From a virus: a stretch of 64,000 nucleotides of DNA. Below the pieces are notes generated by a model. That model did no database searches, was not told the DNA's origin, and worked only from the letters and a program-made list of their open reading frames with translations. Location: positions 1-64,000 of the IMG/VR virus record IMGVR_UViG_3300025087_000044. One strand, 5' to 3'. Made by a program: the position numbers and the translations under genes. The first letter of the stretch is position 1, and each line of letters starts with the position of its first letter. Shown piece after piece: positions 128-63,252 of this stretch.

Positions 128-142
128 CGTTAATCAAGGCTT

Positions 143-608: not shown

Positions 609-719
609 AAATTGAGGCATTTGGCGTTACTCATCGCAACAGGCGTAAAACAAATATAACTTCAGTTTGGGTGCGAATCGCCGCGCCCGGCGTGTTCCTT
701 TATTTATGAAAATAAAAAT

Positions 720-1115: not shown

Positions 1116-1623
1116 TGTTCCGTGGAATAAAGGTATAAAAATGCCAATACACTGCGGTTTCCAAAAAGGACACAAAGCCTTAAGAACAAAAGAACAATAC
1201 AAATTAGCCGATAAGTCGTTTTTTAATAATCCAGAATATAAAGAAAAAATGAAACAGATAGCTATTAGCCATGGTTACGGTAAATGGATGAAAGATAAAA
1301 AGAGATCTAACGAAACAATAGAAAAAATTTCGAAAGCTAACACTGGAAGAAGAAAAATCAACCCATTGACACCTGAATACAAAAGAATAAGAACTAGTAA
1401 ATCTTGGATAAAGTGGCGCGAAGCAGTTTTTATTAGAGACAACTTTACCTGTAGGAAGTGTGGAATAAAGAACTCAAAAGGATATGGAAAAACAATTGAG
1501 CTTAATCCACATCATATAAAATCATTTAAAGAACATCCAGGATTGGCTTTTGATATAAGAAATGGCGTTACACTTTGCAGAGAATGTCACAAAAAAACAG
1601 ATAGTTGGGGTCATCATAGTTAA
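1096..1623 (+). CDS. HNH homing endonuclease with NUMOD3-like DNA-binding motifs
   Basis: FAKGNVPWNKG, RSNETIEKISKANTG, WREAVFIRDNFTCRKC, HHIK...NGVTLCRECH. Confidence 0.9.
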   Translation: MLFAKGNVPWNKGIKMPIHCGFQKGHKALRTKEQYKLADKSFFNNPEYKEKMKQIAISHGYGKWMKDKKRSNETIEKISKANTGRRKINPLTPEYKRIRTSKSWIKWREAVFIRDNFTCRKCGIKNSKGYGKTIELNPHHIKSFKEHPGLAFDIRNGVTLCRECHKKTDSWGHHS

Positions 1624-1687
1624 GTTGACTGTAGTATATCAAGGGAATAATCACCCCAAAATGAGGAAACTTAAAAAGAAAATATGA
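1622..1687 (+). pseudogene. Orphaned second copy of the DUF1064-like gene 3' end
   Basis: Translates KLTVVYQGNNHPKMRKLKKKI*, matching KITVVYQGKHPKLRKMKKY encoded from 1041. Confidence 0.85.
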
Positions 1688-1986
1688 TTGAACAAACCAA
1701 CTCACTTGACCCACGCTACTGGGCGGAAGAACGAATGAAGATAGCCGATTACTACGCCAAGGCTGGTGAGCAGGCGGTCGCTCTCATGCGCGTCCACGCC
1801 GCGTATTATAAAGCACACCGCCCGGAGCATAAAAGCGACGCGTCCGTGGAGCGTTCGTGGGAACTGACCGATGAGGGTTTGAAGTTAATGGAACTGAAAG
1901 CCAAAATGAAGAGCTACGAACACAAGTTATCAGCCATAAGAACTTTACTTGAAGTCGCGTCCAACGAAAGTCGTAATAATTATTAA
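1684..1986 (+). CDS. Hypothetical helical protein
   Basis: Clean 100-aa ORF with coiled-coil character. Confidence 0.7.
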   Translation: MIEQTNSLDPRYWAEERMKIADYYAKAGEQAVALMRVHAAYYKAHRPEHKSDASVERSWELTDEGLKLMELKAKMKSYEHKLSAIRTLLEVASNESRNNY

Positions 1987-2060
1987 CCAAATATCTCTAT
2001 GGCAATCCTATTCGCTATCGCGGTAACGTTCTTAATCGTGAGAGTTAGCTTGGAATACGT

Positions 2061-2243
2061 ATGAACTCCAAATCATTCATTCGGTTTCTGCTTTACAAGA
2101 AACTGCAGGAAATAAAAAAGTTCCGCAAAATGCTGGCGGTATTCACCAGCGAAGATGACTTGTGGAAAAGCCAAGGTTTGAATAAGCTCTACGTTGAGGC
2201 TGATAAGCTAACCGTCAGGCTGGAGCAAGCCGCTAAAATATGA
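2061..2243 (+). CDS. Hypothetical protein, distant homolog of 41747..41947
   Basis: Shared LW-x4-L-x-KLY-x-EA pattern. Confidence 0.55.
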   Translation: MNSKSFIRFLLYKKLQEIKKFRKMLAVFTSEDDLWKSQGLNKLYVEADKLTVRLEQAAKI

Positions 2244-2470
2244 GAACGCTGGTACTTGTCTGCAAGTGCGGAAAGAAGTTGTTGCTCAACCACCCCGACA
2301 GGGTAATTCCGCACTCCACCGGTTGGCGCGAGCCGTTCGAGGCGCAATTCGGAAAGGTCAACATCCAGCCCGCTAAGCAGTTCAGCGGATATAAGAGAAT
2401 GTTTAATAGCGAATGGGCGGAATATCAATGCGTTAAATGCAACCAAGCCGGTACACACGGCTTAAAGTAA
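2240..2470 (+). CDS. Small zinc-ribbon protein
   Basis: CKCG ... CVKC; ATGA overlap with upstream gene. Confidence 0.6.
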   Translation: MRTLVLVCKCGKKLLLNHPDRVIPHSTGWREPFEAQFGKVNIQPAKQFSGYKRMFNSEWAEYQCVKCNQAGTHGLK

Positions 2471-2650
2471 TATGGAATTTCTATCAGACTATCCTCCAAT
2501 TTGGGAAACAGCCGTCTGGCTGGCCTGCGTTATCCCAGCCACAGCGATACTGTTGGCGGTTGTGGCGATTGCGACTGTGCTGTTGTGGCACGCCATTCTT
2601 TACGTTTATGAGAATTTCGACGAGTTGAATAAAGTCTAACAACCAAACTT

Positions 2651-2914
2651 ATGTTCTGGACAATCGTTCTGGCTATCTTATTCGTTTGCGCTCTACCGTA
2701 TATTATCTGGCTTAGCGGTGCTTTTATTTATTGGGTTGGGTGCGGTCTATTTTGGCTCTACCGCTCAATCAAGGAAAACAAAAAAGCACAAGATAACATT
2801 TGTTCATCGTTAAAATCATTAAATAAGTTTATAAATTCACTGCCTGCTTTCGTGCTATGCTGTTTCGGAGTATCGATTTTCTTGCTCTTTACTTTTTTTA
2901 TTGGTCGGATGTAA
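2651..2914 (+). CDS. Small membrane protein, convergent with the ejection-protein gene
   Basis: Two long hydrophobic segments. Confidence 0.6.
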   Translation: MFWTIVLAILFVCALPYIIWLSGAFIYWVGCGLFWLYRSIKENKKAQDNICSSLKSLNKFINSLPAFVLCCFGVSIFLLFTFFIGRM

Positions 2915-2918
2915 ATAA

Positions 2919-2952
2919 TAAAAAGAGAACGGATTCGTTCCGCCTCTTTTTT
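2919..2952. terminator. Probable bidirectional intrinsic terminator
   Basis: AAAAAGAG..CGGATTCGTTCCG..CTCTTTTTT between convergent genes. Confidence 0.6.
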
Positions 2953-2958
2953 GTTTGT

Positions 2959-5508
2959 TTATTTTACTTTGTCCCACTCTGCTTTTAGTTGCGAGCGGGT
3001 TTTGATTACATTCTTATTCCATACTCCGTAATTAGCACCAAACTTGCTTTCTTGTGTAATCATTCCGTCATAGCCAAGTTTTTTTAGTGCTTTTTTTACT
3101 TCTGGCATTTCTGCAAAATATGCTTTACCATCTTTTATTCCTTGAATAATATCAGTAGAGCTATGAACAGGATTTGACAAACCGCCTGTCTTTTCCGATA
3201 TAGTCAATTTAGTACCGTCTGGTTTTGTAATAATAATTGTCTTACCTGTTTCTTTTGGAGAGATAATTTCATCTATTTGTTTAATTAAATCTCTACTTGG
3301 TTTCCGCAAATCAGCAATCTTTGCATTTTTTGAAAGAGAAATCTCGTTAAGTGTAGAACTTTTTCCTCCATAAGATTTTGCATAGGTTGGATTTTCTGTC
3401 ATATAGAAAGCGCCCCACTTGCTACGCATATTTCCAACCTCTTTTAAGTTTTCTCCTCCGTGATACAAAGTCTCGCCCTGCCCCTTCACCCACTCGTCAA
3501 AAGACAGTCCTGACGCTTTGGCCTCCACCGCGGTAAGATTGCCAGCCTTGGGCGCTATCGCCTCACCTGGGGCAGTTTTGAGGCTCTGAGGTGTTGTTTG
3601 TGGCACAACTGCCTCAGCTTTTGGGAACAACTCGTCCAGTAATTCACGCAAAGCTTTACGTTGATCTATTGCGTTTGGCACCCCTGCCTTAGATACATAC
3701 TCAATTAACTCGGGAATGCCAGCTCTTATTCCTCCAGAAAAACCTGTTTTAGGAATAGTGTCAGGGTACAACTTTCTTAATTCTTGAGCAAAAGCTGCTA
3801 CTTGCTTAGGTGTAGCATCTGCGTAACCTAACTGCCGTGCCAATTCGTCCATTTTATCAGCTACTGCCTCAAAAACAGGCGAACTCTGAGCTTCGCCAAA
3901 TATCCTGCGAAGATTTACTTTTGCAAATTCAGCTCCGTCTGCCGACTTGGTAACATTGAAATTGGGCGTTCTGAATATGCTGTCCTCGATGTCGTCCGTA
4001 ATTAAGACCAAATCACGATACTGTTTATTTAACGCTTTAACTTCAGGCGAAATGTCGTCTAGTTTTTTAGAAAAAATATCTCTAAATACACTAAAGATAC
4101 TCTTACTTCCTTCAGGTGTTTCTATTATGATTTCTCCTACATCTGCCATTCTGGCTTCTCTCTGCAGTTTACTGAATAATTGATCCTTCTTTTTGATATC
4201 TAAAGGACTTAAATTTTTACCTCCTTCCGATGCCATATCAAATAATTGTTGAATAGCGGATCTTTCTGATGGCTTTAAATTAGTAACTTTAAATTTAAGC
4301 TTTCCTTTCGCTCCCACCTCGATACCTTGATCAGATAAAACTTTTCTTACCTCTAAAAAGCTATCCATCATGTCTATCTTCTCTGTCTTGGATAGGCCTT
4401 TAATTAAATCTCCTATTGCAGACCCCACTCGCTTCTTCTCTTTGCTTATAAAGCTGAACTGCTTAACGGCTAAGTCACCGCTGATCTTTGACGGCTGAGT
4501 TATTGCACCAATCGTTTTGGGCGGATTATCAGCCAAATCCAATACTTGCCTATAAGCTCCGACTGTCGGCTCATCTGCTTCAATTACCGTATTTATTATC
4601 CTCTCGTCTAAGTTTGACTCCATGGCGCGTTTAGCTGCAGGCGAAGACTCTTTTATTTTCGCAGCCCTTACCGATGCGGTTTCTAGTCCCTCGCCAATTC
4701 TTTGAGCCACCCTCGGGATTCTACCCAGAAAATCTTTTCCGGTTTGTAGAAGCCCCGAAGCGGCGGACATATCAGGGACTGCCGAAGCAAGCTCAGACCC
4801 TCCTCTTGCAATCGCCAACAAAGCTTTATTACCAGCAGACCCTGTAGCTTCCGCAGCCTTTAATGCGGCACCCTCAACGCCTTTGGCGATTGGCCCAGCA
4901 CCAACTATAGTAGTCACAATATCAACAACACCTAACAACCCCCTAAGGTCAGCTGCAGTTTGCGGATTGGCTTCTTCCCATTCGTTGTATTTCTCAACCC
5001 CCTTAGACAGATACATTAACCCCTCTCTTATTTTAGGCTGTTCTATTGCTTGTTGCGCCTTTGCACCTAAATAATCTTGTACTACCTCAGGCGTGAGTTT
5101 CTTGGCGGCAAACTTAAGTCCTTCAAAAATTAGATCGCCAACACCGCCAGTCACTTCGCCAACCAGCTGCAGTCCGCTCCTAGCGGCTCCTTGCGTTTGA
5201 TTTTCATTACCTCCTCCTTGTATTGGAGCCGTCCTGTCATAAATACTCTTAATACGGTCAACTCTCTTACCCAACGAGTCAGCCAAAGTAGTAGCAGCTT
5301 CTTCTGTGTATTGTTTTTGCTTTGACGGATTCAAGAACGCTGGCAAGTAATCAAGCACCCCGTACTTTTTGTCATTTTTTTCTTTTAAGTAGTCATATTT
5401 ACCGGCCGCCACCTTGTTTTTATCAACAAGCAATGAATTTGAAAATCCGGGGGCAGGAGATAATCCAGCTCCGGCTCTGATTTCCGCTATTTGTTCTGGT
5501 GTAAGCAT
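2959..5508 (-). CDS. Putative DNA-ejection/internal virion protein with C-terminal ADP-ribosyltransferase-like (ART-PolyVal type) domain
   Basis: Last gene of late operon, Ala/Gly-rich helical body; C-terminal LYHGG...AFYMTENPTYAKSYG...LGYDGMI...YGVWN. Confidence 0.65.
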   Translation of the reverse strand: MLTPEQIAEIRAGAGLSPAPGFSNSLLVDKNKVAAGKYDYLKEKNDKKYGVLDYLPAFLNPSKQKQYTEEAATTLADSLGKRVDRIKSIYDRTAPIQGGGNENQTQGAARSGLQLVGEVTGGVGDLIFEGLKFAAKKLTPEVVQDYLGAKAQQAIEQPKIREGLMYLSKGVEKYNEWEEANPQTAADLRGLLGVVDIVTTIVGAGPIAKGVEGAALKAAEATGSAGNKALLAIARGGSELASAVPDMSAASGLLQTGKDFLGRIPRVAQRIGEGLETASVRAAKIKESSPAAKRAMESNLDERIINTVIEADEPTVGAYRQVLDLADNPPKTIGAITQPSKISGDLAVKQFSFISKEKKRVGSAIGDLIKGLSKTEKIDMMDSFLEVRKVLSDQGIEVGAKGKLKFKVTNLKPSERSAIQQLFDMASEGGKNLSPLDIKKKDQLFSKLQREARMADVGEIIIETPEGSKSIFSVFRDIFSKKLDDISPEVKALNKQYRDLVLITDDIEDSIFRTPNFNVTKSADGAEFAKVNLRRIFGEAQSSPVFEAVADKMDELARQLGYADATPKQVAAFAQELRKLYPDTIPKTGFSGGIRAGIPELIEYVSKAGVPNAIDQRKALRELLDELFPKAEAVVPQTTPQSLKTAPGEAIAPKAGNLTAVEAKASGLSFDEWVKGQGETLYHGGENLKEVGNMRSKWGAFYMTENPTYAKSYGGKSSTLNEISLSKNAKIADLRKPSRDLIKQIDEIISPKETGKTIIITKPDGTKLTISEKTGGLSNPVHSSTDIIQGIKDGKAYFAEMPEVKKALKKLGYDGMITQESKFGANYGVWNKNVIKTRSQLKAEWDKVK

Positions 5509-5513
5509 ATTGA

Positions 5514-7376
5514 TTATTTAATTCCTAATAATTGAATCATGTCTTCTTCAGAAATCCCCGGATTGAGTGCCGCCAAAGCATTGTACTCATTAATTAATTG
5601 CGGATTATCACTGAGCGTTTGTTCCAATACACTGATTATTCCATCATCGCCACCTGCGGCAATTAAGGCACTTTGTGCTATCTTTTTTATTCTATTAACT
5701 TCCTCCATAAATATCTCGCGTGAGACCTCCCATCGTCCAATGCCATTGCCTTTATCATCTTTAATCTCCCAATCCTTTAATTTTGTAGCCGAATTTTGTA
5801 ACATCAATCTTTCCGTATCAGATAAAGCCCCCAATGTCCCGCCTGCTTTTTTTAAATTAAGCAAAGCGTCTAATGTCTCCTTATCTGTCAATCTGTGTAC
5901 GGAAGCTTTAAAAGCCATTCTTTCGGATTTATCTATTGTTACCGGCGACCATCGTTTCAAAGCATACGTTCCGACAGACCCCAATAGTCCTTTTTTATTA
6001 TCTTCAATCTCATCAATTAATCCTAATTTATCTTGAAATGCCATTGTAGCCTCAAGATTGGATGCTGAAGTTCCTTTCAGTTTGGCTACCGCATTCATGA
6101 CATCAATCTTCATTTTAGAGTTCTTTCCTATTTCATCCATAACTTGCGCCATTGTCAGTTCTTTATCCACAACTTGTCTAGCCCAAACCATCGCCTCGCT
6201 ATTGTCCGCTATGTCAGTCGCGTTGTGTTGAAAAGTCTTAGGATCTATTAAGTTGCCGTTTTTATCTTTAACTTCTAAATGCAAATGCACTCCTCGCCCC
6301 GCAGCCAATTCTTCAGCCGATGGTGCTGTGCCATCACCTTTTAGCACATAACCAGTATTACCCATTAAACCTATCTTTTGACCTGAAGTTACAGATTCGC
6401 CCATTTTGACATTAACATCATTGAAATGCGCCATTCTCCACTTATTTCCATTTGCGTCTTCAATAACGACAGTAGTTCCCCAGCCTGGAGTACTTTGCGC
6501 TTCCACAACCTTGCCTGATATAGGAGATGTTACAGGTGAATTAAGAGTTCCAGTTATGTCATATCCACCATGTGTTTTCCTGCCGTCTTTAAAATACGAA
6601 ACAGGGGTATCATAGCTTTGTATTGGCTCAACACCCCAATCAGACAACCATTTATTGAAATCAGCAGAACTCCCAACATCTCCACTTTGAGGCTTAATCC
6701 AAGTCCTTGTACTGGTATCCCATTGCTCTAATTGACCATCTCCATCAATATCTTCCATTGTTGGGGCTTTGCCGTCATTCGGAGTGGTTTTGAGATACTC
6801 ACCCCATTTAACAAGAAGCTCATCAGACATTCCGCCATTAACAATGTCCTCAAAATCCTTGCCTGTTAATTGAGAAGCAAATGGCGTGGCTAACATATTC
6901 TGCAGTATTCCACTGCCTATGGCTCGCATCTCTTTCTCTTTGGCGGCGCGTTGAGTTTCTTGCTCCTTAATCATGCTCATTGTGGAATTGTAAATATCCA
7001 CCACCGTCCCGGAACGACGCTCTGTTTCACTGCTAATGGCATTTGAAATTAAAGTCGGATTCTGGATATTCAATCCGGCTTGCTGGTACTGCTGCATTGT
7101 GTCAGCACCCGTCCGATTGCCGTAAGCCGACCTCGCTATCTGCTTCATAGCTAAAGCAAAATCATTGCCCTCAGCAGGCACATCACCGGGAAGCGAACGA
7201 TTCATTGAAGGAAGAGTGCCTTCAAGAGAACCGCTTTCCACTGGAGCTTTTTGATTTGGGGCTGAAACTTCTTGCGCTTTGCCAGTCCAAGACTTTTGCC
7301 ACTCCGTAGGGCCGATGTGCCTGTTTGTGTTGGCTTCAAAAATGTCCTTTCCGACTCTGTAAAATTGTAATGCCAT
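5514..7376 (-). CDS. Putative ejection protein with internal M23 peptidase domain
   Basis: HGGYD (HxxxD), SPISGKV, GWGTTVVI, MAH, GLMGNTG, HLHLEV. Confidence 0.8.
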   Translation of the reverse strand: MALQFYRVGKDIFEANTNRHIGPTEWQKSWTGKAQEVSAPNQKAPVESGSLEGTLPSMNRSLPGDVPAEGNDFALAMKQIARSAYGNRTGADTMQQYQQAGLNIQNPTLISNAISSETERRSGTVVDIYNSTMSMIKEQETQRAAKEKEMRAIGSGILQNMLATPFASQLTGKDFEDIVNGGMSDELLVKWGEYLKTTPNDGKAPTMEDIDGDGQLEQWDTSTRTWIKPQSGDVGSSADFNKWLSDWGVEPIQSYDTPVSYFKDGRKTHGGYDITGTLNSPVTSPISGKVVEAQSTPGWGTTVVIEDANGNKWRMAHFNDVNVKMGESVTSGQKIGLMGNTGYVLKGDGTAPSAEELAAGRGVHLHLEVKDKNGNLIDPKTFQHNATDIADNSEAMVWARQVVDKELTMAQVMDEIGKNSKMKIDVMNAVAKLKGTSASNLEATMAFQDKLGLIDEIEDNKKGLLGSVGTYALKRWSPVTIDKSERMAFKASVHRLTDKETLDALLNLKKAGGTLGALSDTERLMLQNSATKLKDWEIKDDKGNGIGRWEVSREIFMEEVNRIKKIAQSALIAAGGDDGIISVLEQTLSDNPQLINEYNALAALNPGISEEDMIQLLGIK

Positions 7377-7377
7377 A

Positions 7378-10300
7378 TTATGTTGTGAATTTAAATGGGT
7401 CTTGCTGATTTATCAATGTATTCTGCAAGTCCAGTATCTTTTGTTGTCTCTGGTCTTCAAGCGAGCCGACTACAGGAGTGGCTTGCGTTCCAAGGCTTGG
7501 CGCACCCGTAGGAAGATTCGCCGTTCCCATAGCTCCCTCAGCCTTTCGCCAGATACTCGTTGCCGCCTCAGCACCCTGCCTAGTAGTGTCTTGAATGCCT
7601 TGTTCCGCCGTTTGAATGCCTCTAAGCCCGGTTGTTTCCAGCTCTCTTAGCGATTTGGCAGCCGCTGAACTTAACGCCTGAGCTTGAGATTGATTAGCTT
7701 CACTTAGTCTTTGTTCTGCTAATTTCCGAGGACTGGAAAACGCCAAGCCTTGCTCTGCGGCCTGTTGTGATAAATCAGTCAAATTCGCTTTATAAGTCCT
7801 TAACAAATCCGACATTTGAGCTTGCTGATCCAATGTTAAAGTCTCCCTTCCATAAGCAAGGTCTTGATTTATCTGGTTTATTTTCGTCTGGTATTGGCCT
7901 ATGCTTGACAATACATCTTGCTCATTTGAAGCTAATGCGTTGGTCACCTCGTCTCTAGCCATCAATAACTGGCTTCTCCACCACGGATCGGCTGTCTTTA
8001 CCGCCTCATCCAACGCTTTAGCCGCCTCCTGTCCTTTAAGCGTATTTGCTAAGGCGATAGCATTGTATTGGTCAATCAATACCTTCTGTTGGTCGGGGTC
8101 ATAACGCTTGATTATAGCCAGCGCGTCAGCAGATATTCCATCATAATTAAGGTCGCCCTCAGTTTCAGGCACGACAGGTGCAGTTGGAGCGGTAGGCATC
8201 GGTGCGCTATTAGTAGCCCAATTCCAGTTTAGTTTGTCAGTTTCCGACCAATCAGCAGCGGGTTTGTTGTATAAATCAACAATGCTTTGACGCTGAGAAT
8301 CATTTAATCCATCCCTAAATGGGATTAGAGTGTCACTTCCAGCAGCAGGAGCTGTTGGTGCAGATGGGGCAGTAGGTGCTACTGGCGCTGTTGGTGCTGG
8401 AGCATTATTAGTTGCCCACTTCCAATTAAGCGTATCTGTTCCTGACCATTGTTCGGGCGGTTTATTATATAAATCTATTATGCTTTGTTTTTGAGCATCA
8501 CTAAGCCCATCTCTAAATGGTATCATTGTATCACCGCCTACGGCTGGCGCAACAGGAGTAGTAGGAACAGTTGGACTTGCGACTGGTGTTGTTGTTGGAA
8601 GCGGAGCAGAGTTTGTAGCCCAATTCCAATTAGAGCGATCTGTGTCTGACCACGAAGAAGATGGCTTATTTGTAAGTGCAATTATAGACTGCTTTTGAGC
8701 GTCCGTTAATCCTGTCCTAAAAGGAATAAAGGTGTCAATGTTTGAATTTGGTGTAGGAGTGGTTTCAGTTGGAGTGGTGGTTGTTGGAGTTGTCACGGGC
8801 TGTGTAGTCGGTGCTGTCGGAGGAGAATTTATTGGTTGCGTTACAGGCTGTGCAGGTTGTGGAGCTAAGGTTTGATTGGGCGCAGTCACTCCTGCCGGCG
8901 GATTATCACCGTAATCTTTAGCGCCAGCACTTACTGCTGCAGAAACTTGCGCCATTGTTCCTAAATAGTTTCCGTCTTGGTCAACGTAATTCCCATTCGA
9001 CTTATATACGTATTTAGCAGGTAATGAGGATGTTGGCGGTTCAATTGTCGGGGTTGTGGGTTGTGGCACGACTGGAGGCGCTACAGGGGCTTCAGGCGTG
9101 GTTGGCGCTTTGTAACTGCCACTAGTTAATCCCCAGCCTTGTGATTGCAAATCAGATGCCTGAGTGCTTCCTGTTTTTACTACTTTCTTTGTGTTGTTTG
9201 GTCCATACAACGTGGCGGCAAGTGTTCCTGGGTCTGTTAATGTTGTAGAGTTAGGAACGGCTACTCTTTCTCCTGATTCAGTAAACGCCCACTTTGTGCC
9301 TGTCGGCGGTTGTACACCCGAATACATAATTCCCGGATTCCATGGTGGATTTTGAGTATAAATAGCGGTAGATTTTATATCAGGTGCTGTAGATTTTGAT
9401 TCAGGTGTTGCTGCAGGAGTGGTAGCAACCGGCGGCACTGTTGTAACTGGGGCGGTTGGTTGTGTTATCTCCTCTTGACTTGGCGCGTCAATTATCGTGC
9501 CCTCGCCTTTGGCGACCAGCGCGTCAGCTGCACTCTTAGTCATTTGCAACTTGTTTACTCCTTTTTGCACCCAAACCAAAGGGTCTTCTGCTGGAGCGGA
9601 AGGTTGCTGGACTGTAGGATTAGGCGTAACCGTTACCGGCCCGGCATTAAAATTAGGATTAGCTTGATTAATCATCGTGTTAGCTTCATCAACCGTTGTA
9701 GCCTTGCCGTCTGCGATTAACTGCAAATCATTTCGTTGAAACTCGGGAGCCGGAGCTTTTACCGTATCCATCTGTTTTTGCTCATCGGCTGTTAAGCTGT
9801 CTTTCCCTGGCGATACTTGAGGAAAGCCCAATGTCTTAAAACTCTTCAGCATATCCAAAGACGTAGCAACAGTTTTCTGGCCTGCGTTATTGATGAACGT
9901 ACCGTAGTCCTTTAACCCAGCGTCCTGGATTTTTCTCCAATCATCATAAGCTGTAGTTTTCCATTTACTTAAATCGGTAGTGGTAAATCCAGCATCTTTT
10001 GCCACTTTAGAAAAAGCACCACTTAAAGTATCCCAGCGTGAAATTCCGACTAGATACCCCTGCTCAGCTCCTGCTGCATACCTAGATAGATTCCTGAAGT
10101 CCCCCCTGTTTGTAGTGTCATAGATAGTAGCCCCTGAAGGATTAATTAATTGATAATGATTCCAACCTGTTCCATTATTAACAACTTCCACTACTTGCAT
10201 TTTGTAGCCATTACCCACGTCAACACTTTGTCCGCTCGTTAATCCTTTCCAATTAGAATTGATGGCGTTGTTTATTGCAGAAGCCATTGAATCGCCTATC

Positions 10301-10428
10301 TTACTGTTAAACTCATCTTGTTGCTTGGAATACCAATCGGAAACCACCGAATATGGGCTTTGGCCTGTCCCTGAATAAGTAGCTGGGTCTTTCAGTATCT
10401 CTAATAGTTTTTGTTCGCCAGTTGTCAT
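7378..10428 (-). CDS. Large putative ejection/virion protein, Pro/Thr-rich, with three ~45-aa repeats and coiled-coil C-terminus
   Basis: Position after tail genes; 3x DTxIPFRxGLxDxQxQSIxxLxNKP...WSxTDxxNWxWATNxAP. Confidence 0.7.
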   Translation of the reverse strand: MTTGEQKLLEILKDPATYSGTGQSPYSVVSDWYSKQQDEFNSKIGDSMASAINNAINSNWKGLTSGQSVDVGNGYKMQVVEVVNNGTGWNHYQLINPSGATIYDTTNRGDFRNLSRYAAGAEQGYLVGISRWDTLSGAFSKVAKDAGFTTTDLSKWKTTAYDDWRKIQDAGLKDYGTFINNAGQKTVATSLDMLKSFKTLGFPQVSPGKDSLTADEQKQMDTVKAPAPEFQRNDLQLIADGKATTVDEANTMINQANPNFNAGPVTVTPNPTVQQPSAPAEDPLVWVQKGVNKLQMTKSAADALVAKGEGTIIDAPSQEEITQPTAPVTTVPPVATTPAATPESKSTAPDIKSTAIYTQNPPWNPGIMYSGVQPPTGTKWAFTESGERVAVPNSTTLTDPGTLAATLYGPNNTKKVVKTGSTQASDLQSQGWGLTSGSYKAPTTPEAPVAPPVVPQPTTPTIEPPTSSLPAKYVYKSNGNYVDQDGNYLGTMAQVSAAVSAGAKDYGDNPPAGVTAPNQTLAPQPAQPVTQPINSPPTAPTTQPVTTPTTTTPTETTPTPNSNIDTFIPFRTGLTDAQKQSIIALTNKPSSSWSDTDRSNWNWATNSAPLPTTTPVASPTVPTTPVAPAVGGDTMIPFRDGLSDAQKQSIIDLYNKPPEQWSGTDTLNWKWATNNAPAPTAPVAPTAPSAPTAPAAGSDTLIPFRDGLNDSQRQSIVDLYNKPAADWSETDKLNWNWATNSAPMPTAPTAPVVPETEGDLNYDGISADALAIIKRYDPDQQKVLIDQYNAIALANTLKGQEAAKALDEAVKTADPWWRSQLLMARDEVTNALASNEQDVLSSIGQYQTKINQINQDLAYGRETLTLDQQAQMSDLLRTYKANLTDLSQQAAEQGLAFSSPRKLAEQRLSEANQSQAQALSSAAAKSLRELETTGLRGIQTAEQGIQDTTRQGAEAATSIWRKAEGAMGTANLPTGAPSLGTQATPVVGSLEDQRQQKILDLQNTLINQQDPFKFTT

Positions 10429-10429
10429 A

Positions 10430-10747
10430 TTATAATAAATTATTTCGCCAATCGATTAAGTTTCCTGTAAGCCAATCAATGTATTCTTCATTTACGCTGC
10501 GAGTTTTCCAGTGCAATAATTCATGAACCAATACGTGCTCAAAATAAGGAGAGTCCTTTTTAATTTCTATTCTATCAGTATCAAAGTAAATACAACCTTC
10601 AGCCTTTTTGTTGTTGCATGGAATATTCTCCAAGTATATTGTTTGATTGCCATTAAAGAAGGGTTGCCATTTCTTCAATATCAAAGATTGTTCTATGGTT
10701 CCTCCATTCAAGATAAACAGTAATAACAAAGGGATAAAAAGTTTCAT
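10430..10747 (-). CDS. Small HEXXH metallopeptidase-like protein with N-terminal hydrophobic segment
   Basis: VLVHELLHW; MKLFIPLLLLFIL. Confidence 0.6.
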   Translation of the reverse strand: MKLFIPLLLLFILNGGTIEQSLILKKWQPFFNGNQTIYLENIPCNNKKAEGCIYFDTDRIEIKKDSPYFEHVLVHELLHWKTRSVNEEYIDWLTGNLIDWRNNLL

Positions 10748-10748
10748 A

Positions 10749-12950
10749 TTAACCAGTTATCGCACTAAATACCGGAACATAGTAAGCAGTATTTTCAATA
10801 TAAATCTTAATGAATCCGGCACTATCTCTGTTTGTCGTCCCCTTAAACAAAATAGTTCCGACTCCTACGTCATTAGCCGTAATGTCATAGATTCCTGTTA
10901 CAGTAAGAACGTCTCCAGAAAGACTTGGCATCCCAGGATCTCCAATTACCACAACTCCATTTCCGAACAACGCTTTTCCATCGGCTCTAACATACCAACT
11001 ACTAGTGGTTCCCAGAATATCATAAACGGACGAAGATTGCGTTGCTATATTTATCGAAGCTCCTGTTCCGTAATTTGTAATGTTTAATGTAGGAGCGGCA
11101 TTACTGTAACTATTCTGTTGTAGTGTTAAAACAGAACTATAATTTGGATCTACTTTTCCAGTCGTGAATGTCCAATAATCCCCCATTACACCACCCGTAG
11201 TCCCTCCTGTAAAATAAACAGTAACTCTATAATTTAGTGTTATTGAACCGCTACTAACAGGAACACCCGTAGCATTCCATGTGCTGCCCCCATTATCAGA
11301 CCATTTAAAAGTATTAGGAGTTCCAGTTCCATCTATTTCTATCTTATAAGTGCGACTAGTCGTTGAACCATAATCAAATGTATTTATTTGCAATGACAAT
11401 GAACCAGTCTTAACTGGCGTAATGGCAGGAGAGAAATTAGTATTGTACAATAAAGTTAAAACGTTTCCAGTTGATTGATAACTACCCCCATTGCCAACCG
11501 AAATAGAATGATCAATTATCGAACAAGATGATATTGCTGAAGTATTCGCAACTGGATTTTGTATGTATAAAACATTGTTAGAGCAAACGTCATATGCGGA
11601 GTATGAAGTTAAATACGTACCAGACAGTGACGCTGGTATAATAGTACCAAATATACAATTTCTTGAAGACACTGTTTGATTGACACTTGCTATGGGATTT
11701 GTCACTCCAGTCCAATAAACATCCATACCGCTACTATCCAAGACTATCCGTGAGCCGCTCGTTGCTGTTCTGATTGAACCTGTTCCAATAGTATATAATC
11801 CAGAACTATCAACTATAACGCCATTCGTTGAACTGCCAAAATATCCCTGTGAGGACGCAACCACTCCGCTCAAATACACATTATTCGTCCAAAGCCCATA
11901 ACCTGAAAGAGCCGCCCCGTCATAAGGATTGGTTAATCCAGCCAAATTGCCAAGCCTCACCTTTTCCGTCGTTGTTGACCACGGACTGCCAGCATGAGTG
12001 AATATGCTTAAAAATGGATTGTTCGTATCGGAAGCCGTCAAATATAACAGACCCTGTCCTGATTGACCGTAGTTTGTAACACAAGCCCCTTTTTTCCACG
12101 CAGGATTAGCATTAGCTCCGTAAGCCGAAGCCTGATCACGAGTAACGATATAAGTAGGGGCTGAAGCGATATTTGTTACTAAAAACCATTCGTCGTCCGT
12201 ACCATCTTTTATTCTTAGTCTGTCATTGACTGCAAAAGTAACCGTACCCTTAATTGTTAGTGTAGAATTATCTGCCGCCGTCATATCTACAGACAAAACA
12301 TCACTTGATGGTGCAATTACGAAACTACCTGACATAGCTGAAACTACATCTTTCTGAAATACAGAAGTGCGAATCATTCCTCGTGCCGAGATATTTCCAA
12401 CTTCCAATAAATCAGGCTCCAAAGTAAATCCTGCTCCCGCTACACCTGAAACATAATTAGAACTTCTTATTCTTAAATTCGCACCGTCTATCGTAATGTA
12501 ATTTCCACTTGTAGAACCTACTCTTATCAATGAATTGGCAGAATCAATAAGCACACTTGAAGTTGCCTCAACAGAACCTGAGCTTAAGGTATTAGTATTG
12601 ATATACCAATTCGCTATCCTGCCTGAAGTGGCCGTAATGGAGCCCACAATCGTCAAAATACCGGCAGTCGTTACACCCCAGTCTATAGAGTAAGTTGAGT
12701 TTCCTATCAGCCATTTGTACTTGCCATCGCGGTCGTAGCCCTCAATCTTGCCCTCAGTCGTATCCTGAAAGTTCTTTTTGGCAACGCAAGTCAAAGTTGC
12801 GTTCTCACCCGGTATAATTGAGCCGGGAACAATCGGATTGGTTATCGGATTACCCAAGGACTGCGTAGGAGCAACAGAAAGAAGAGGCGGTTTAGTCAAC
12901 CACCGATTCATTCCTATTTGAGCGTCCCAAATGCTATATGGTTCAGGCAT
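10749..12950 (-). CDS. Tail fibre/spike protein
   Basis: Ser/Thr/Gly-rich beta protein; KVRLGNLAG...YGLWTNNVYLSG; position after nozzle. Confidence 0.7.
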   Translation of the reverse strand: MPEPYSIWDAQIGMNRWLTKPPLLSVAPTQSLGNPITNPIVPGSIIPGENATLTCVAKKNFQDTTEGKIEGYDRDGKYKWLIGNSTYSIDWGVTTAGILTIVGSITATSGRIANWYINTNTLSSGSVEATSSVLIDSANSLIRVGSTSGNYITIDGANLRIRSSNYVSGVAGAGFTLEPDLLEVGNISARGMIRTSVFQKDVVSAMSGSFVIAPSSDVLSVDMTAADNSTLTIKGTVTFAVNDRLRIKDGTDDEWFLVTNIASAPTYIVTRDQASAYGANANPAWKKGACVTNYGQSGQGLLYLTASDTNNPFLSIFTHAGSPWSTTTEKVRLGNLAGLTNPYDGAALSGYGLWTNNVYLSGVVASSQGYFGSSTNGVIVDSSGLYTIGTGSIRTATSGSRIVLDSSGMDVYWTGVTNPIASVNQTVSSRNCIFGTIIPASLSGTYLTSYSAYDVCSNNVLYIQNPVANTSAISSCSIIDHSISVGNGGSYQSTGNVLTLLYNTNFSPAITPVKTGSLSLQINTFDYGSTTSRTYKIEIDGTGTPNTFKWSDNGGSTWNATGVPVSSGSITLNYRVTVYFTGGTTGGVMGDYWTFTTGKVDPNYSSVLTLQQNSYSNAAPTLNITNYGTGASINIATQSSSVYDILGTTSSWYVRADGKALFGNGVVVIGDPGMPSLSGDVLTVTGIYDITANDVGVGTILFKGTTNRDSAGFIKIYIENTAYYVPVFSAITG

Positions 12951-14394
12951 AATCCAGTGGTGAAGTGTTAGGCAGTTCCAAGCCTTTAAAAATATATCGA
13001 GCCGTGGAACTTGTTCCCGTAATAATGAAATTAAAGTAATGGCCTTTTAAATTATTCGCTAACTTCAAATTGGCGAAGTCTTTATTTGCCGTTCCCATGT
13101 TATATATCTTGAGTCCGTCAATTTGCACGGACAAATTTACGGCAACCGTATTGAAACCGTACATCATTATTCGCTCATTGATTTCCTTGATTATACCCAA
13201 CGACCCTAAGTCTTGATCCTGCGATTCGATTTCAAATGCTATATTCGTTCCGCAATCAGTCAAAGCGGAACTCTCAATTTGAATAATATTGCCGTTCGTA
13301 TCACCTCCTACAGCCTTGACCTCGCCCGAATCTATGTATTGAGTAAAACGCCTGAACTGATTGGCGTAACTGAAGACGGTAAACTCCTTAGTGGCAATCG
13401 TATATCTTAAAACCACATTGCTGAATACCCGACCATCAACTGTGCAATCGCCTACCGAACAATAGTAATGCTCGTTATCACAATAACCGGAAACACTTGA
13501 GTAGAAAGTTGGGTCAATGGCATCAATGAACTTTTGAACCGCTCTTGAGATAAGTTGAGGCATTTCACCAGTTGTCATCCAAATCCCTTTATCATTAAAG
13601 AAGAACAACATTCCCGCGCCTGTGGCAATGCTGTCATGAGAGGAGCAACCTACAGGAGTTACAACATCAGCCTCGATGGAACTATTATTCCAGCGATACA
13701 TCGCTCCATTCTTAAACACTATTAATAAGTTGGCCACAACGCCCATTCCTGTAATATTAGAGTTGTCTGCAGGATTGACCACTATCTCACGGTTATCAAC
13801 TGTCCATGAGATTTGCGTTCCGCCTGAGTCTGGAACTGATGAGATGTAAAGACTGTCAGGACTGCCTGAAACGCCGGCAACTACAATTTGAGCTTTGTAC
13901 ACACAGCCAAACTTACCCTTTGGGAAATTAGTCACATCTAAAGCTCCGCCTGAGGTTGTCCACGAGCCTGTCCCATTCCAAGACTTAACGGCGTCCGTTC
14001 CGTTTAGTCTAGCCACGGAATCTAAAAAAGTAACAAACCTGGTCTTAAGACTGGCCGTATCGCCTGTCAAAGTACTAACCCAAGTTGTGCCGTTGAAGTA
14101 ATATGTCACAGCCGTAGCGTCACCGACAGCATTAAGCGTTGCCAAGAGATGGGAGTTAGCACCGGCTTCGGAGTCCACAAACTGATACAATCCATTGATG
14201 GTCTTGCCTGACGTGATTTGACTGCCAATGGCCGTACAGCCTTTGCGCACAACTGAAAACCCGAACTCCTCATCGAATACCATATTGACGGCATGCTTGA
14301 CGGAATTCAATGGTGCAATCTTGTGCGACACCTTTTGTATCACACCTGTCGATTGGTCTTGGAATACAAATTGTGGACTTAATCTTTGTCCCAT
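12943..14394 (-). CDS. Tail nozzle/stabilisation protein (beta-propeller, podovirus-type)
   Basis: LYISS...ITGM..LLIVFKNGAMY...VGCSSHDSI...FFFNDKGIW; follows adaptor. Confidence 0.7.
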   Translation of the reverse strand: MGQRLSPQFVFQDQSTGVIQKVSHKIAPLNSVKHAVNMVFDEEFGFSVVRKGCTAIGSQITSGKTINGLYQFVDSEAGANSHLLATLNAVGDATAVTYYFNGTTWVSTLTGDTASLKTRFVTFLDSVARLNGTDAVKSWNGTGSWTTSGGALDVTNFPKGKFGCVYKAQIVVAGVSGSPDSLYISSVPDSGGTQISWTVDNREIVVNPADNSNITGMGVVANLLIVFKNGAMYRWNNSSIEADVVTPVGCSSHDSIATGAGMLFFFNDKGIWMTTGEMPQLISRAVQKFIDAIDPTFYSSVSGYCDNEHYYCSVGDCTVDGRVFSNVVLRYTIATKEFTVFSYANQFRRFTQYIDSGEVKAVGGDTNGNIIQIESSALTDCGTNIAFEIESQDQDLGSLGIIKEINERIMMYGFNTVAVNLSVQIDGLKIYNMGTANKDFANLKLANNLKGHYFNFIITGTSSTARYIFKGLELPNTSPLDYA

Positions 14395-14397
14395 ATG

Positions 14398-15810
14398 TTA
14401 GTACGTAATTTTGTTTATTTTTGGTTGCCATTTGTACTTCTGGCCTGTCAATTCTTTCTTAATCATGTCAATAAGAATCGTATTGAACATCTTGTAGTCT
14501 CCGTCTTCAAAATCCAGTGACCCGGCTGAGTTATTGGTTGAGCGTATCTTCCAAATGAGCCAGTGCTTAACGGCATCATAACGAGGAAACTCAATCACGT
14601 CCGAATCAGTTGTCACAGCAGTCCTTTGTGAATAGTAATCCATTGATAAATTAAAATTGTCGTGAGCGGAATCAGGAAGCGGCCAAATCAATAAATTTGC
14701 CTCATAAACGGTAAAGTAAGTCGGGATTCCCTCTGATTCATTCTGCCAAACATTGGTATCTACAGCAATGGTAACCGTTATCGAGCCATCACCGGTTGCA
14801 GGCACGCCTGTCAATACACCTGCCGTCTGACTTCTGGTAACTCCCGTATAGGAAATTGTGTATTGCGTACCTGAAATGTAAACTTTAACTGTGCCTGAGT
14901 CGGCAAAATCATAAGAGTTATCAATCTCAAGTGTAGTATCGCCAGCTGTGGCTTGTGTTCTAACCTGTGTCTTAGCAACTTTATTCTGCTGATTAATCCA
15001 CTCTTTCTTATCTTGATAGATAAGCGTATTCAAATTGCCCAGTCTGACATCCAAAATAGACTTATTGGTGTTCTTGTCTTCAATATCTGTTGGCATTGAG
15101 AACTCATAAGAACCGCGTTGCGAGTAACCTAACGAGTAATTGAATGATTGGAGCGGCGACCAGTGCTTTAGTTTTCCTGAAATAAACCGCAAGCAGGCAT
15201 TTATCTCATCCTTAAGGAACTCTGTAGTGACTTGTTCATCAATCACAGCTTTAGACTGTTTCAAGGCGGTTCTTATAAGACTTGCGACCGTATCATAGCC
15301 GTAACCTGTGGAAGCAGTAATTCCATCAGAATACGCATCTCCATCTAAAGAATTAAAGCTGTCATACGGCAAAACGAAGTAATAAGCGTATTCTGTCCCC
15401 GTATTGACCCAAGTCGTAAGTTCAGCGTCGACTTGCATGGCTATTGTGGCCAGTAAAACTGCCCCTACGGACGTGTTGGTGGTGTTTCCGTACACTTTCC
15501 ACTGATTGAACAAAACCTTCCGTACAACGCAGTTGAGAGGGTGTGGAAAGGTGAGTGCTGAACATGCTATTGTTGTGCCATAAGTAACCACGCTGGTTAT
15601 CTGCTTGATTTCGGTTTTAGCAGAGCCTACTTGGCCAAATAAAACAAGGTTTGTGTCGGCAAATCCATTATTATCAGCAACACTTATCGAAGTATCACTG
15701 GCGGCTGATTCGGTGGTCAAATACGACTGTAGCTTCTCCAGTTGTTCCAAGTGAGCGATTTGAATTGTTCTGTTAATAGCCCTAACTATCCGAGGTTTTT
15801 CGTAAGCCAT
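14398..15810 (-). CDS. Head-tail adaptor (tail tubular protein A-like) with inserted domains
   Basis: LKDEINACLRFI...YEFSMPTD...GIPTYFTV...LLIWPLPD...MDYY. Confidence 0.65.
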   Translation of the reverse strand: MAYEKPRIVRAINRTIQIAHLEQLEKLQSYLTTESAASDTSISVADNNGFADTNLVLFGQVGSAKTEIKQITSVVTYGTTIACSALTFPHPLNCVVRKVLFNQWKVYGNTTNTSVGAVLLATIAMQVDAELTTWVNTGTEYAYYFVLPYDSFNSLDGDAYSDGITASTGYGYDTVASLIRTALKQSKAVIDEQVTTEFLKDEINACLRFISGKLKHWSPLQSFNYSLGYSQRGSYEFSMPTDIEDKNTNKSILDVRLGNLNTLIYQDKKEWINQQNKVAKTQVRTQATAGDTTLEIDNSYDFADSGTVKVYISGTQYTISYTGVTRSQTAGVLTGVPATGDGSITVTIAVDTNVWQNESEGIPTYFTVYEANLLIWPLPDSAHDNFNLSMDYYSQRTAVTTDSDVIEFPRYDAVKHWLIWKIRSTNNSAGSLDFEDGDYKMFNTILIDMIKKELTGQKYKWQPKINKITY

Positions 15811-15877
15811 AGTTTTTTATAATTATCTTCATAACGCCCCCAGCAACCGCATGGAAGCGATAGAAAACAATTATTTC

Positions 15878-16117
15878 TTAATTATTATCTTTGCGTATTC
15901 TCTTGCGCCAATGGCGACTAAGCCAGTCAAGAAAAGTATCATTCCATACAACTCCTTGCCCGGTGTGAGTATCAAAAGCTGTCCAAGCCCCATTGTAGTA
16001 ATAGCCGCCCCGAGTAAGCCCCCTTTTAATATTAACTCCTTGTCCATATAGTTTATTGGTTATGTCTTTAAAAACATATTTCAAGTCGCTCCAGAATAGC
16101 CGCAACTTAGGTAACAT
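15878..16117 (-). CDS. Hypothetical protein
   Basis: Tightly coupled downstream of endolysin. Confidence 0.5.
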   Translation of the reverse strand: MLPKLRLFWSDLKYVFKDITNKLYGQGVNIKRGLTRGGYYYNGAWTAFDTHTGQGVVWNDTFLDWLSRHWRKRIRKDNN

Positions 16118-16118
16118 A

Positions 16119-16787
16119 TTATTTATTCGGATTGGTGACTGACGTTACGCCATCGTACTTAAGATTATTCAAAGTTAAGAGGTCAACACTTCTTACTTTG
16201 GCTTTGTCTATCGTGTATCCGAATATTATTTGAAATGTGCGCTCGGAATCTATCCAATACCGCTTCTGATTGCGTATAAGGTACACAGCCGGGTCCCATG
16301 GATTCTTTATCAATTCGCCATCAGCCAAGGGTTCCGCCAGCCACGCGGCCGGGTCAATCGCGCCATCGTACCCGTTATTCGTGTTCTGCTTAACGCCATT
16401 CTTGTCTATCAAATACAGCCCAAAATGCAGATGCGGACCCGTGGTGTACCGACCCGTATTGCCCGAGAGAGCAATCACACCACCGGCCTTGACCGACTTG
16501 CCATCTGCCAATTTGTGCTGGCTTAAATGATAATACATCGTCTGGATTCCCAATTCCTTATTGATGACATAACAGTAAATCCCACCATCGCCGCCTACCC
16601 TGTTACTGATAACACCATCATGACAAGCGTGAATATCCGTTCCCACCTTACACGAGAAATCAATCCCATTGTGACCGGCAAGCCCAAGCTCAACGTAGAA
16701 CTTCGCCGTTACCGGAGAATTGGGCGGCCCGAACCACTGCGAGATAGGGAACTTCTGTGGATCGAGAGGCAAGGTTAGTTTTATCAT
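16119..16787 (-). CDS. M23-family endolysin with C-terminal putative cell-surface-binding module
   Basis: HNGID, YYHLS, GNTG..TTGPHLHFG; C-terminal DGELIKNPWDPAVYLIRNQKRYWI. Confidence 0.9.
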   Translation of the reverse strand: MIKLTLPLDPQKFPISQWFGPPNSPVTAKFYVELGLAGHNGIDFSCKVGTDIHACHDGVISNRVGGDGGIYCYVINKELGIQTMYYHLSQHKLADGKSVKAGGVIALSGNTGRYTTGPHLHFGLYLIDKNGVKQNTNNGYDGAIDPAAWLAEPLADGELIKNPWDPAVYLIRNQKRYWIDSERTFQIIFGYTIDKAKVRSVDLLTLNNLKYDGVTSVTNPNK

Positions 16788-16791
16788 ATAT

Positions 16792-17019
16792 TTATTTTTC
16801 TTCTTTTGCCCCCGCCTTTATGGGCGTTTCGCTCTCTTCTTTCGGCTCCCAATAATCGTCGCTGTCATCTTCCTTTTCGTATTCATGCGTTAACTCCAGC
16901 ACCACGTCATCGGCGTACATCCCCACCCGAATGATTATGTCTTCAATGTTCTCAAACCTGCCCACCACTTGAACGTGGCCATCACCGTCTTTATTTGTCG
17001 CGTATAAAACGTAAGCCAT
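16792..17019 (-). CDS. Small acidic hypothetical protein
   Basis: ORF 4 nt upstream of endolysin. Confidence 0.6.
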   Translation of the reverse strand: MAYVLYATNKDGDGHVQVVGRFENIEDIIIRVGMYADDVVLELTHEYEKEDDSDDYWEPKEESETPIKAGAKEEK

Positions 17020-17050
17020 AGTTTAGGGTTTAGTATTTACTATAAACAGT

Positions 17051-17274
17051 ATATGGTATATTTTTCTGAATTATATCCAGCAAGTGCAGGCCTGCCCAAC
17101 CATCGAGGCATACCCCTCTAGGCCACTCTGCGCCCCTTGCTGACGGCCAGTAGGGCTGTCGCCCCTAAATACGGATAAGAGCCGCATTCCCGTAAGTTCG
17201 CTAGTTAAGTGGGCGTTCCTAGCCAGTATCCTGCCCTCTCGTTAATCGAAAGAGCAAGCAACTAACTCCCACAT
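17051..17274 (-). ncRNA. Unnamed structured RNA downstream of tRNA-like array (homolog of 63072..63252)
   Basis: Multiple hairpins; ordered shared blocks GTGGG, GCAGGATAC, CTAG, TTAA..AGCGA, AGCCCTA, CTGGC..CAGCAA, ACTTRCTGG, ATACCA. Confidence 0.7.
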
Positions 17275-17286
17275 GAGATTTCACAA

Positions 17287-17356
17287 GGCGATAACAGGGA
17301 CTCGAACCCTGATAGTCATCATTTACTGACATTCTAACCATTGAATCATTATCGCC
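17287..17356 (-). tRNA. tRNA-like gene resembling tRNA-Gly, aberrant anticodon arm (no clear anticodon)
   Basis: GCGATAA/TTATCGC acceptor, ATTC/GAAT D-stem, CAGGG-TTCGAGT-CCCTG T-arm; anticodon arm only GTCA/TGAC with 8-nt loop. Confidence 0.7.
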
Positions 17357-17359
17357 ACA

Positions 17360-62997: not shown

Positions 62998-63069
62998 GCG
63001 TCAATAATTCATGGGTTAGAATCTGAGATTTCCAATCTCGGTAAAAGGGTTCAAGTCCCTTTTGACGCT
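62998..63069 (+). tRNA. tRNA-Gly(TCC)
   Basis: GCGTCAA/TTGACGC; TGAGA-TTTCCAA-TCTCG; U73. Confidence 0.92.
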
Positions 63070-63071
63070 TC

Positions 63072-63252
63072 GTGGGTATCCATGAGGTTGTACGCAGGAT
63101 ACATCTAGCACTCCAATTAAAAGCGACTGATGAGAGAGTAACCCTCTCGAAACTCATGAGAGTCTCGCGGAGTAGCCCTAGGAGTGGAATAACTGGCTAC
63201 CAGCAACCTCTTTAGCAAATAGTACCTTACACAACTTACTGGCTAATACCAC
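63072..63252 (+). ncRNA. Unnamed structured RNA downstream of tRNA-Gly (homolog of 17051..17274)
   Basis: Shared ordered blocks and covarying helices. Confidence 0.7.
63123..63168 (+). ncRNA. Type I hammerhead ribozyme, predicted cleavage after C63164
   Basis: GCGA-CTGATGA-GAGAG(TAACC)CTCTC-GAA-ACTC(ATGA)GAGT-C-TCGC. Confidence 0.92.

Follow-up and report, generated by a model that had tools for sequence, protein, structure and literature searches.

What is encoded directly behind the tRNA-Gly gene that lies near the end of the analysed window, that is, the whole 64,000-nt stretch of viral DNA taken from IMG/VR record IMGVR_UViG_3300025087_000044? An earlier note had proposed that this locus (copy A) and a second one on the opposite strand (copy B), each beginning a few nucleotides after a tRNA-Gly-type gene, belong to an unnamed structured RNA family with a swappable arm. 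The sequence blocks listed in its support are present in both loci as literal strings and in the same order, and copy A does start where it was said to, its tRNA ending at 63069 and the strand CGUGG beginning at 63071. The comparative analysis presented here bears out the unnamed family, for which 43 distinct members and no Rfam match were found, and copy A is, with high confidence, a full member of this uncatalogued group of phage RNAs.

By blastn, copy A matches an unannotated intergenic stretch of Enterobacter phage SDFMU_EhYP, located between the capsid and tail tubular A genes, and this stretch in turn matches Pectobacterium phages Pappous and Taid and Dickeya phage Setonix, phages in which the element ends about 10 nt short of a tRNA-Met. 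Scanning of IMG/VR, a metagenome collection and a genome collection for the strand pattern GGAATAACTGG.T.CCAG, with or without GGAGTA, returned about 70 loci, of which 43 are distinct parsed members. Their sources are many metagenome projects (marine TARA, human gut and others), phages, enterobacterial prophages and a Thermomicrobiales MAG, and a near-full copy is found in 15 of 5426 complete E. coli genomes. The pattern GCGGAGTA.CC..GGAATAAC yielded one further true member (L060). Two other patterns were discarded: AGCCCTA..CTGGC...CAGCAA gave 19 loci in IMG/VR, all of them chance matches in coding DNA, and GTGGG..GCAGGATAC..CTAG gave 27 loci, again all chance matches, in which the covariance model R1 (see below) detected nothing. 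No further copy of A or B was found in the remaining 35 kb of the 99-kb record.

The conserved element is a core of some 100 nt, with four helices (H1 to H4), two interlocked pseudoknots and about 35 invariant nucleotides. The strands that connect the helices (CGUGG, UGCA, AUCU, GGAGUA, GAAUAACU and CCAG) are invariant. H2 joins the loop of H1 to the 3' tail, and H3 joins the strand that follows H1 to the loop of H4. The core can be divided into two modules. M1 runs through CGUGG, the 5' strand of H1, an A, the 5' strand of H2, UGCA, the 3' strand of H1, AUCU, two bases and the 5' strand of H3; M2 runs through GGA, the 5' strand of H4 (GUAnCC), a few bases, the 3' strand of H3, GAAUAACU, the 3' strand of H4 (GGnUAC), CAG and the 3' strand of H2. 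M1 lies 5' of M2 in type 2, as in copy A, and 3' of M2 in type 1, as in the enterobacterial copies, where the two modules are joined via a capping hairpin. The same four helices hold in the 43 distinct sequences of both permutations, and it is this retention of all four in types 1 and 2 that identifies the rearrangement as a true circular permutation.

Covariation was assessed on an alignment of 21 type-2 sequences from which copies A and B had been left out. Standard pairs occupy 99.8% of its 525 cells, and changes on both sides are seen in 17 of the 25 pairs (139 cells in the 21 sequences), including 4/6 pairs of H1, which is 100% paired, 7/7 of H2 and 5/6 of H3. On four of five measures none of 500 shuffles equalled the alignment, the exception being further pair types (89/500), and in a control in which partners were slid by 1-3 columns pairing fell to 33-45%. 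Two additional pairings were observed in individual members. In L080, L081, L100, L065 and L070 (type 2), the bases just past H2 (often CACG...) can be paired by eye with CGUG and the upstream flank, in what would be a fifth, closing helix replacing the capping hairpin of type 1, and the type-1 member L090 carries an extra hairpin inserted in the H1 loop (GCGGGAAACCGC).

Model R1, built from 21 other sequences with both window copies left out, matches copy A from end to end (cmsearch, 120.6 bits, E 8.7e-40, model positions 1-146 of 146). The invariant strands CGUGG, UGCA, AUCU, GGAGUA, GAAUAACU and CCAG are all found in order between 63071 and 63203, and all four helices are satisfied in full (Table 1). 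Folding by minimum free energy is uninformative for copy A (z = -0.41) because the fold is pseudoknotted. This parse corrects the pairing scheme put forward earlier in several respects. One of its four helices, GTAGCC/GGCTAC, is the family helix H4, but two are wrong. In the proposed ACTCC/GGAGT pairing, GGAGUA is in fact an invariant strand and CACUCC pairs with GGAGUG, covarying in the 43 sequences; in the proposed CCAGCAA/TTACTGG helix, CCAG is invariant and CAACCUC pairs with GAGGUUG, the supposed downstream partner being at chance level (40% of shuffles). A distal closure of the 5' GTGG with a 3' CCAC has no support in the family in that form, and the conserved part stops at about 63210-63213, some 40 nt before the end at 63252 that had been assumed. 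The pseudoknots that had been suspected are nonetheless present, as H2 and H3.

Table 1. Features of copies A and B and of their surroundings, in window coordinates unless another record is named.
Feature	Position	Strand	Basis or remark
tRNA-Gly, anticodon UCC	62998..63069	+	ARAGORN; Rfam tRNA 55.3 bits; without encoded CCA; directly 5' of copy A
Copy A	63070..63213	+	complete type-2 (5'-module-first) member of the hammerhead/double-pseudoknot family
Strand CGUGG	63071..63075	+	invariant in alignment A2 except for one G missing in L086
H1 5' strand GUAUCC	63076..63081	+	partner 63097-63102; 6/6 pairs in copy A
H2 5' strand GAGGUUG, in H1 loop	63084..63090	+	pseudoknot with 63204-63210; 7/7 pairs in copy A
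GCA closing H1 loop	63094..63096	+	invariant columns, alignment A2
H1 3' strand GGAUAC	63097..63102	+	helix parse and family covariation
Strand AUCU	63103..63106	+	invariant in alignment
H3 5' strand CACUCC	63109..63114	+	pseudoknot with 63181-63186 in H4 loop; 6/6 pairs in copy A
Type I hammerhead in copy A arm	63123..63168	+	sequence and parse
Hammerhead stem I, 4 bp	GCGA 63123-63126 with UCGC 63165-63168	+	parse; stem I open
Hammerhead core CUGAUGA	63127-63133	+	C3-A9 match CUGANGA
Hammerhead stem II, 5 bp	63134-63148	+	parse
Hammerhead GAAA	63149-63152	+	G12-A14 GAA and A15.1
Hammerhead stem III, 4 bp	63152-63163	+	U63163 is U16.1
Hammerhead C17	63164	+	H17 is C, not G; predicted cut between 63164 and 63165
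Strand GGAGUA	63169..63174	+	invariant; last three bases begin H4
H4 5' strand GUAGCC	63172..63177	+	partner 63195-63200; 6/6 pairs in copy A
H3 3' strand GGAGUG	63181..63186	+	helix parse and family covariation
Strand GAAUAACU in H4 loop	63187..63194	+	invariant in alignment
H4 3' strand GGCUAC, then invariant CAG	63195..63203	+	helix parse, alignment, covariation
H2 3' strand CAACCUC	63204..63210	+	3' end of conserved element
First ORF downstream of copy A, 130 aa	63268..63660	+	no family match; then 299-aa ORF, gpA-type terminase large subunit
gpA-type terminase large subunit	G000 64461-66098, just past the window	+	lower-GC plus-strand half
Aberrant tRNA-like gene 5' of copy B	17286/7..17356	-	irregular anticodon arm; ARAGORN 'tRNA-???'; Rfam tRNA 46.3 bits; aligned with tRNA-Gly
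Copy B	17136..17272	-	possible diverged relative, no hammerhead
Copy B GUGG	17272-17269	-	14 nt past the tRNA-like gene
Copy B H1, 7 bp	AGUUAGU 17267-17261 with ACUGGCU 17227-17221	-	
Copy B H2	CUUGCU 17258-17253 with AGCAAG 17141-17136	-	overlapping CAG
Copy B GCA	17234-17232	-	
Copy B nested helix	CGCCC 17215-17211 with GGGCG 17164-17160	-	
Copy B hairpin arm	17210-17166	-	
Copy B H4, 5/6 pairs	ACAGCC 17159-17154 with GGCCGU 17148-17143	-	loop only CUACU
3' tail of copy B as first delimited	17046..17135	-	extra hairpin and sigma-70-like promoter
T4-type Terminase_6N beside portal gene	28249-29667	-	higher-GC minus-strand half

Between H3 and GGAGUA lies a single variable arm, which holds a type I hammerhead in most members. 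It is a plain hairpin in L080 and L101, it contains no recognisable hammerhead in the type-1 member L068, and there is no arm whatever in L086 (918-1014, +). The idea of a swappable arm was hence right at the level of the family, in which hammerhead, plain hairpin or no arm may occupy this position. Of the two copies in the window, the arm of copy A is a canonical type I hammerhead and copy B has a plain, irregular hairpin there. In copy A three stems surround the catalytic core and stem I is open, as befits type I. The 26 distinct hammerheads of the family have the core CUGANGA...GAAA and covariation in stems II and III, with C or A, and never G, at H17. The Rfam hammerhead model RF00163 has no match to copy A itself at E<=10, and the homologous arm of L001 scores 28.7 bits, under the gathering score of 34. 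Because the members that lack a hammerhead keep the core, the conserved unit is the core and not the hammerhead. One of the hammerheads, that of L100 (566-716, -), carries a U4C change in its core (CCGAUGA) and, judging from this change, is probably inactive. The prophage copy of E. coli is represented in RNA-seq contigs of four studies, two of them spanning the hammerhead site; contigs do not reveal RNA ends, and so these give no sign of cutting.

Neither the core nor the element as a whole corresponds to a catalogued RNA. With Rfam 15 at gathering score, the whole window yields five tRNA-type genes only; at E<=10 nothing overlaps copy B, and copy A is touched by two chance-level matches, one to GNAS-AS1_3 on the other strand (E 7.7) and one to a tRNA-like element that extends in from the tRNA. 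The families singled out earlier for comparison (raiA, ROOL, GOLLD, tmRNA and RNase P) are excluded, with no Rfam match at either locus, and ARAGORN finds no tmRNA. An HDV-like or theta ribozyme was rejected on its helix order, P1-P2-P3-P3'-P1'-P4-P4'-P2' with a cut at its own 5' end, as against H1a-H2a-H1b-H3a-arm-H4a-H3b-H4b-H2b in the core, and there is no HDV-type Rfam match. Twister, pistol and hatchet have no Rfam match over the core, and the helix orders that we take these folds to have also led to their rejection. A keyword search of the literature, in which hammerhead was combined with phage, tRNA, lambdoid, RAGATH or pseudoknot, did not bring up the core. The hammerhead is already known, while the core, its permutations and its optional arm are absent from Rfam 15 and from the keyword-searched literature, and an existing description is possible.

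The proposal that the family is present in both segments of the window holds for copy A and fails for copy B as far as the model is concerned: R1 gives no match to copy B at E<=10 with filters off, copy A being its sole find in the whole 99-kb record. The similarity between the two loci does not rise above that of dinucleotide shuffles, of which 222 (local) and 55 (glocal) in 1000 align as well. AUCU, GGAGUA, GAAUAACU and the H3 pseudoknot are all absent from copy B, in which CGCCC pairs with a nested GGGCG instead, and no B-like sequence was found elsewhere, whether by blastn against phage records, by IMG/VR patterns or among relatives of the neighbouring peptidase. These observations would agree with an unrelated copy B, a structured intergenic region beside a tRNA that shares its blocks with copy A by chance, which we consider unlikely but far from negligible. 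Against it, a relaxed descriptor (GUGG, H1, GCA, CUGG-4nt-CAG, H4 and H2) matches only A and B in the window, with 0.025 false matches per simulated 128 kb (both strands of the 64-kb window) and one false match in 1.87 Mb of real phage DNA, although this descriptor was tuned after seeing copy B. In addition, copy B lies just past a tRNA-like gene that resembles the tRNA-Gly of copy A, its CUGG-CCGU-CAG has the exact spacing of the family and closes H4, and the H1-loop insert of L090 sets a precedent within the family for the hairpin in the H1 loop of copy B. On balance, copy B is probably, if by no means surely, a diverged or decaying relative that has kept H1, H2, H4 and the anchors and has lost the hammerhead, H3 and GAAUAACU.

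The surroundings of copy B have some peculiarities of their own. Directly 5' of it are two ARAGORN calls of tRNA-like genes (17286-17436, -), which abut each other and whose anticodon arms are irregular; one is labelled 'tRNA-???' and the other 'tRNA-Stop', with anticodon UUA and a poor acceptor stem. The 3' tail that had been included in copy B is probably outside the family element, and contains a sigma-70-like promoter at 17098-17070 (-), with TGGGCA, a 17-nt spacer and TATAAT (10/12 matches). The 99-kb record has two different terminase large subunits (Table 1); it may be two phages joined or a chimeric assembly, so that A and B may come from different genomes.

The link to tRNAs stands for copy A, which directly follows its tRNA-Gly, but does not define the family. 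A same-strand tRNA is found near 10 of the 43 members, eight of which abut one, and every called tRNA near a member is on the strand of the element. L071 is flanked by tRNAs on both sides. L071, L031, L044 and L079 come from large phages with tRNA arrays, where the element has tRNA-Thr on one side and tRNA-Gly on the other, all on one strand. The other 33 members have no tRNA nearby, and those away from tRNAs mostly lie tens to a few hundred nt 5' of functionally unrelated ORFs, among them genes for holin, terminase small subunit, RecT, methyltransferase, HNH and tail tubular protein A. Where an ORF is called downstream of a type-2 member, the distance to it is mostly 6-66 nt, and copy A itself is followed by orf130, orf299 and TerL (gpA). 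Several members come after a terminator, as the element does in lambdoid prophages and a T7-like phage, where it stands at the head of the late genes. In E. coli the type-1 element is unannotated and lies between the Q antiterminator and the lambda-family holin gene (L053, 3501-3741, in a prophage of E. coli CFSAN061763). A downstream helix competing with the core would be a sign of a switch, but neither in copy A nor over the type-2 members does such a helix exceed chance. The window also encodes an RtcB RNA ligase (44934-46970, +), matched in three pieces within one 710-aa open frame, an arrangement that suggests an insertion. RtcB joins exactly the end types made by hammerhead cleavage; as a trait of the family it was rejected, being present in this record and yet missing from an element-bearing phage that is 96% complete.

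A generic location at transcript boundaries, together with the lack of a conserved expression platform, is best fitted by a cis-acting leader that would process the transcript and cap its 5' end, a reading of the family, based on sequence, that we advance tentatively and with clearly less than even confidence. The complete account for this locus, which comprises the identity of copy A along with the processing and capping mechanism, comes close to an even chance without reaching it. Copy A would share a transcript with the preceding tRNA-Gly and the terminase operon that follows, and tRNA 3' processing would free its 5' end. This last step, already proposed in the earlier note, is plausible because the tRNA has no encoded CCA and the element begins 1-2 nt past the discriminator, and the eight members that abut tRNAs likewise suggest that host tRNA-processing cuts define one end. 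The hammerhead would cut after C63164 and separate the message from the upstream RNA, leaving a 95-nt 5' piece that would end in a 2',3'-cyclic phosphate and stay paired, via H2, H3 and stem I (17 bp in total), to the new 5'-OH end of the message. In type 2 the nicked knot would consist of two base-paired pieces, and it would provide the message with a defined, compact 5' end and a poor substrate for 5'-end-dependent decay; in the E. coli type-1 element the new 5'-OH end would fall at GCGCGGAGUA. A stabilising effect is known both for a 5'-OH end and for the synthetic insulator RiboJ, of which the nicked knot would be the natural counterpart.

Several considerations count against the capping leader. 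Junction strands as conserved as these would more often be met in a catalytic or ligand-binding pocket than in a passive cap, and we know of no 5'-3' exonuclease in E. coli for a knot to block. Furthermore, members without a hammerhead keep the core and cannot make a new 5' end, so that the core must have a role of its own. It seems possible, if some way short of an even chance, that the core is a new functional RNA class endowed with its own activity, whether as a catalyst or by specifically binding a protein or small molecule, which phages would have placed at transcript boundaries and in tRNA arrays and which the built-in hammerhead would nick into an active two-piece form.

Other functions can be envisaged for the same arrangement. 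Release of the core as a stable small RNA that acts in trans, one end being made by the hammerhead and the other by RNase P or RNase Z at a flanking tRNA, is an unlikely reading; release by tRNA processing had been put forward in the earlier note. The knot would then work elsewhere, for instance by decoying or soaking up a host RNA-binding enzyme or a defence nuclease directed at tRNAs. Members that abut same-strand tRNAs, some of them inside arrays and L071 between two tRNAs, would suit such a release, as would the end of the Pappous core shortly before tRNA-Met, the position of copy B behind three aberrant tRNA-like genes, and the discrete RNA of about 150 nt that type-1 hammerhead cleavage and RNase P would yield. 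The 33 members without a nearby tRNA, however, continue straight into an ORF, and neither a terminator nor a second processing site intervenes; moreover, the 3' half of type-2 members such as copy A would remain joined to the mRNA.

A sensor, in which the core would be a ligand- or protein-binding aptamer controlling either hammerhead cutting or downstream transcription or translation, is in our opinion quite improbable. The contrast between invariant junction strands and freely varying helices, the placement in 5' leaders and a hammerhead stem I wired straight into the core junction all agree with it, but an expression platform is not conserved, the distance to the start codon ranging from 6 to >200 nt, members share neither a terminator nor a sequestered ribosome-binding site, the downstream competitor helix does not exceed chance, and the downstream genes have no common pathway.

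Even fewer expectations can be placed on the core as a new catalytic RNA that would cleave itself or ligate beside the hammerhead. Its complex pseudoknots, small size and many invariant nucleotides would be in keeping with catalysis, and hammerhead and twister ribozymes likewise show natural circular permutation. On the other hand, no known ribozyme model matches the core, and its helix order differs from that of HDV-like ribozymes and, presumably, of twister. Self-cleaving ribozymes have also been found clustered near one another in phage DNA (PMC10085705), which favours this possibility. Lastly, there is next to no chance that the locus is a small protein gene or a DNA-level site, for even though a 47-aa ORF with a GTG start (63072-63215) overlaps the element, variation in the 43 sequences preserves base pairing, G-U pairs included, and not the reading frame, and a conserved protein would not accommodate arms of differing length or a circular permutation.

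In the 15 years since hammerheads became known in bacteria and phages, no job has, to our knowledge, been assigned to them. A hammerhead whose place in a larger, still more conserved knot is fixed provides a concrete and testable setting for such a role, the more so as the knot recurs at the heads of late operons and within the tRNA arrays of phages unrelated to one another, among them E. coli prophages tractable at the bench. For structural work the core itself offers a compact RNA fold with strong covariation, and it might also serve as a natural insulator part for 5' UTRs.

The family can be set beside several known systems, beginning with the stable RNAs C and D of phage T4, non-tRNA molecules that are co-transcribed and processed with a tRNA cluster. 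The likeness, drawn by description only, is that of tRNA-linked stable RNAs that are not tRNAs, and we know of no hammerhead reported for RNAs C and D. Type I hammerheads (RF00163), with bacterial and prophage cases among them, were described by Perreault et al. 2011 (PMC3088659). They have in common with the arm of copy A the complete catalytic core, the three stems and the open end of stem I, and many of the bacterial examples are located, like copy A, in a phage intergenic region; in the present family, by contrast, the hammerhead is an optional insert, and the conserved double pseudoknot falls outside any hammerhead model. Theta (minimal HDV-like) ribozymes adjoin phage tRNAs (Kienbeck et al. 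2024, PMC10879173), and copy A is similarly a small, structured, ribozyme-bearing RNA directly 3' of a phage tRNA, a shared placement that suggests a role in tRNA or transcript processing. The ribozyme class is nevertheless a different one, the predicted cut of copy A lies about 95 nt past the tRNA rather than at its 3' end, the helix order is not that of the HDV fold, and most members of the family are away from tRNAs. With two-piece (circularly permuted) tmRNA and other permuted RNAs the family has in common that it is naturally permuted and would work as two base-paired pieces after the cut, but it is devoid of a tRNA-like domain, a tag reading frame and any tmRNA match in Rfam. A parallel to the capping leader would be RiboJ, reportedly described by Lou and colleagues in 2012 as a synthetic insulator made of a hammerhead and a hairpin in the 5' UTR: in both cases a leader hammerhead would remove the upstream RNA and leave a structured 5'-OH end before the coding region. 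RiboJ is an engineered part with a simple hairpin, whereas the phage family keeps a conserved double pseudoknot, which is present also in members without the ribozyme.
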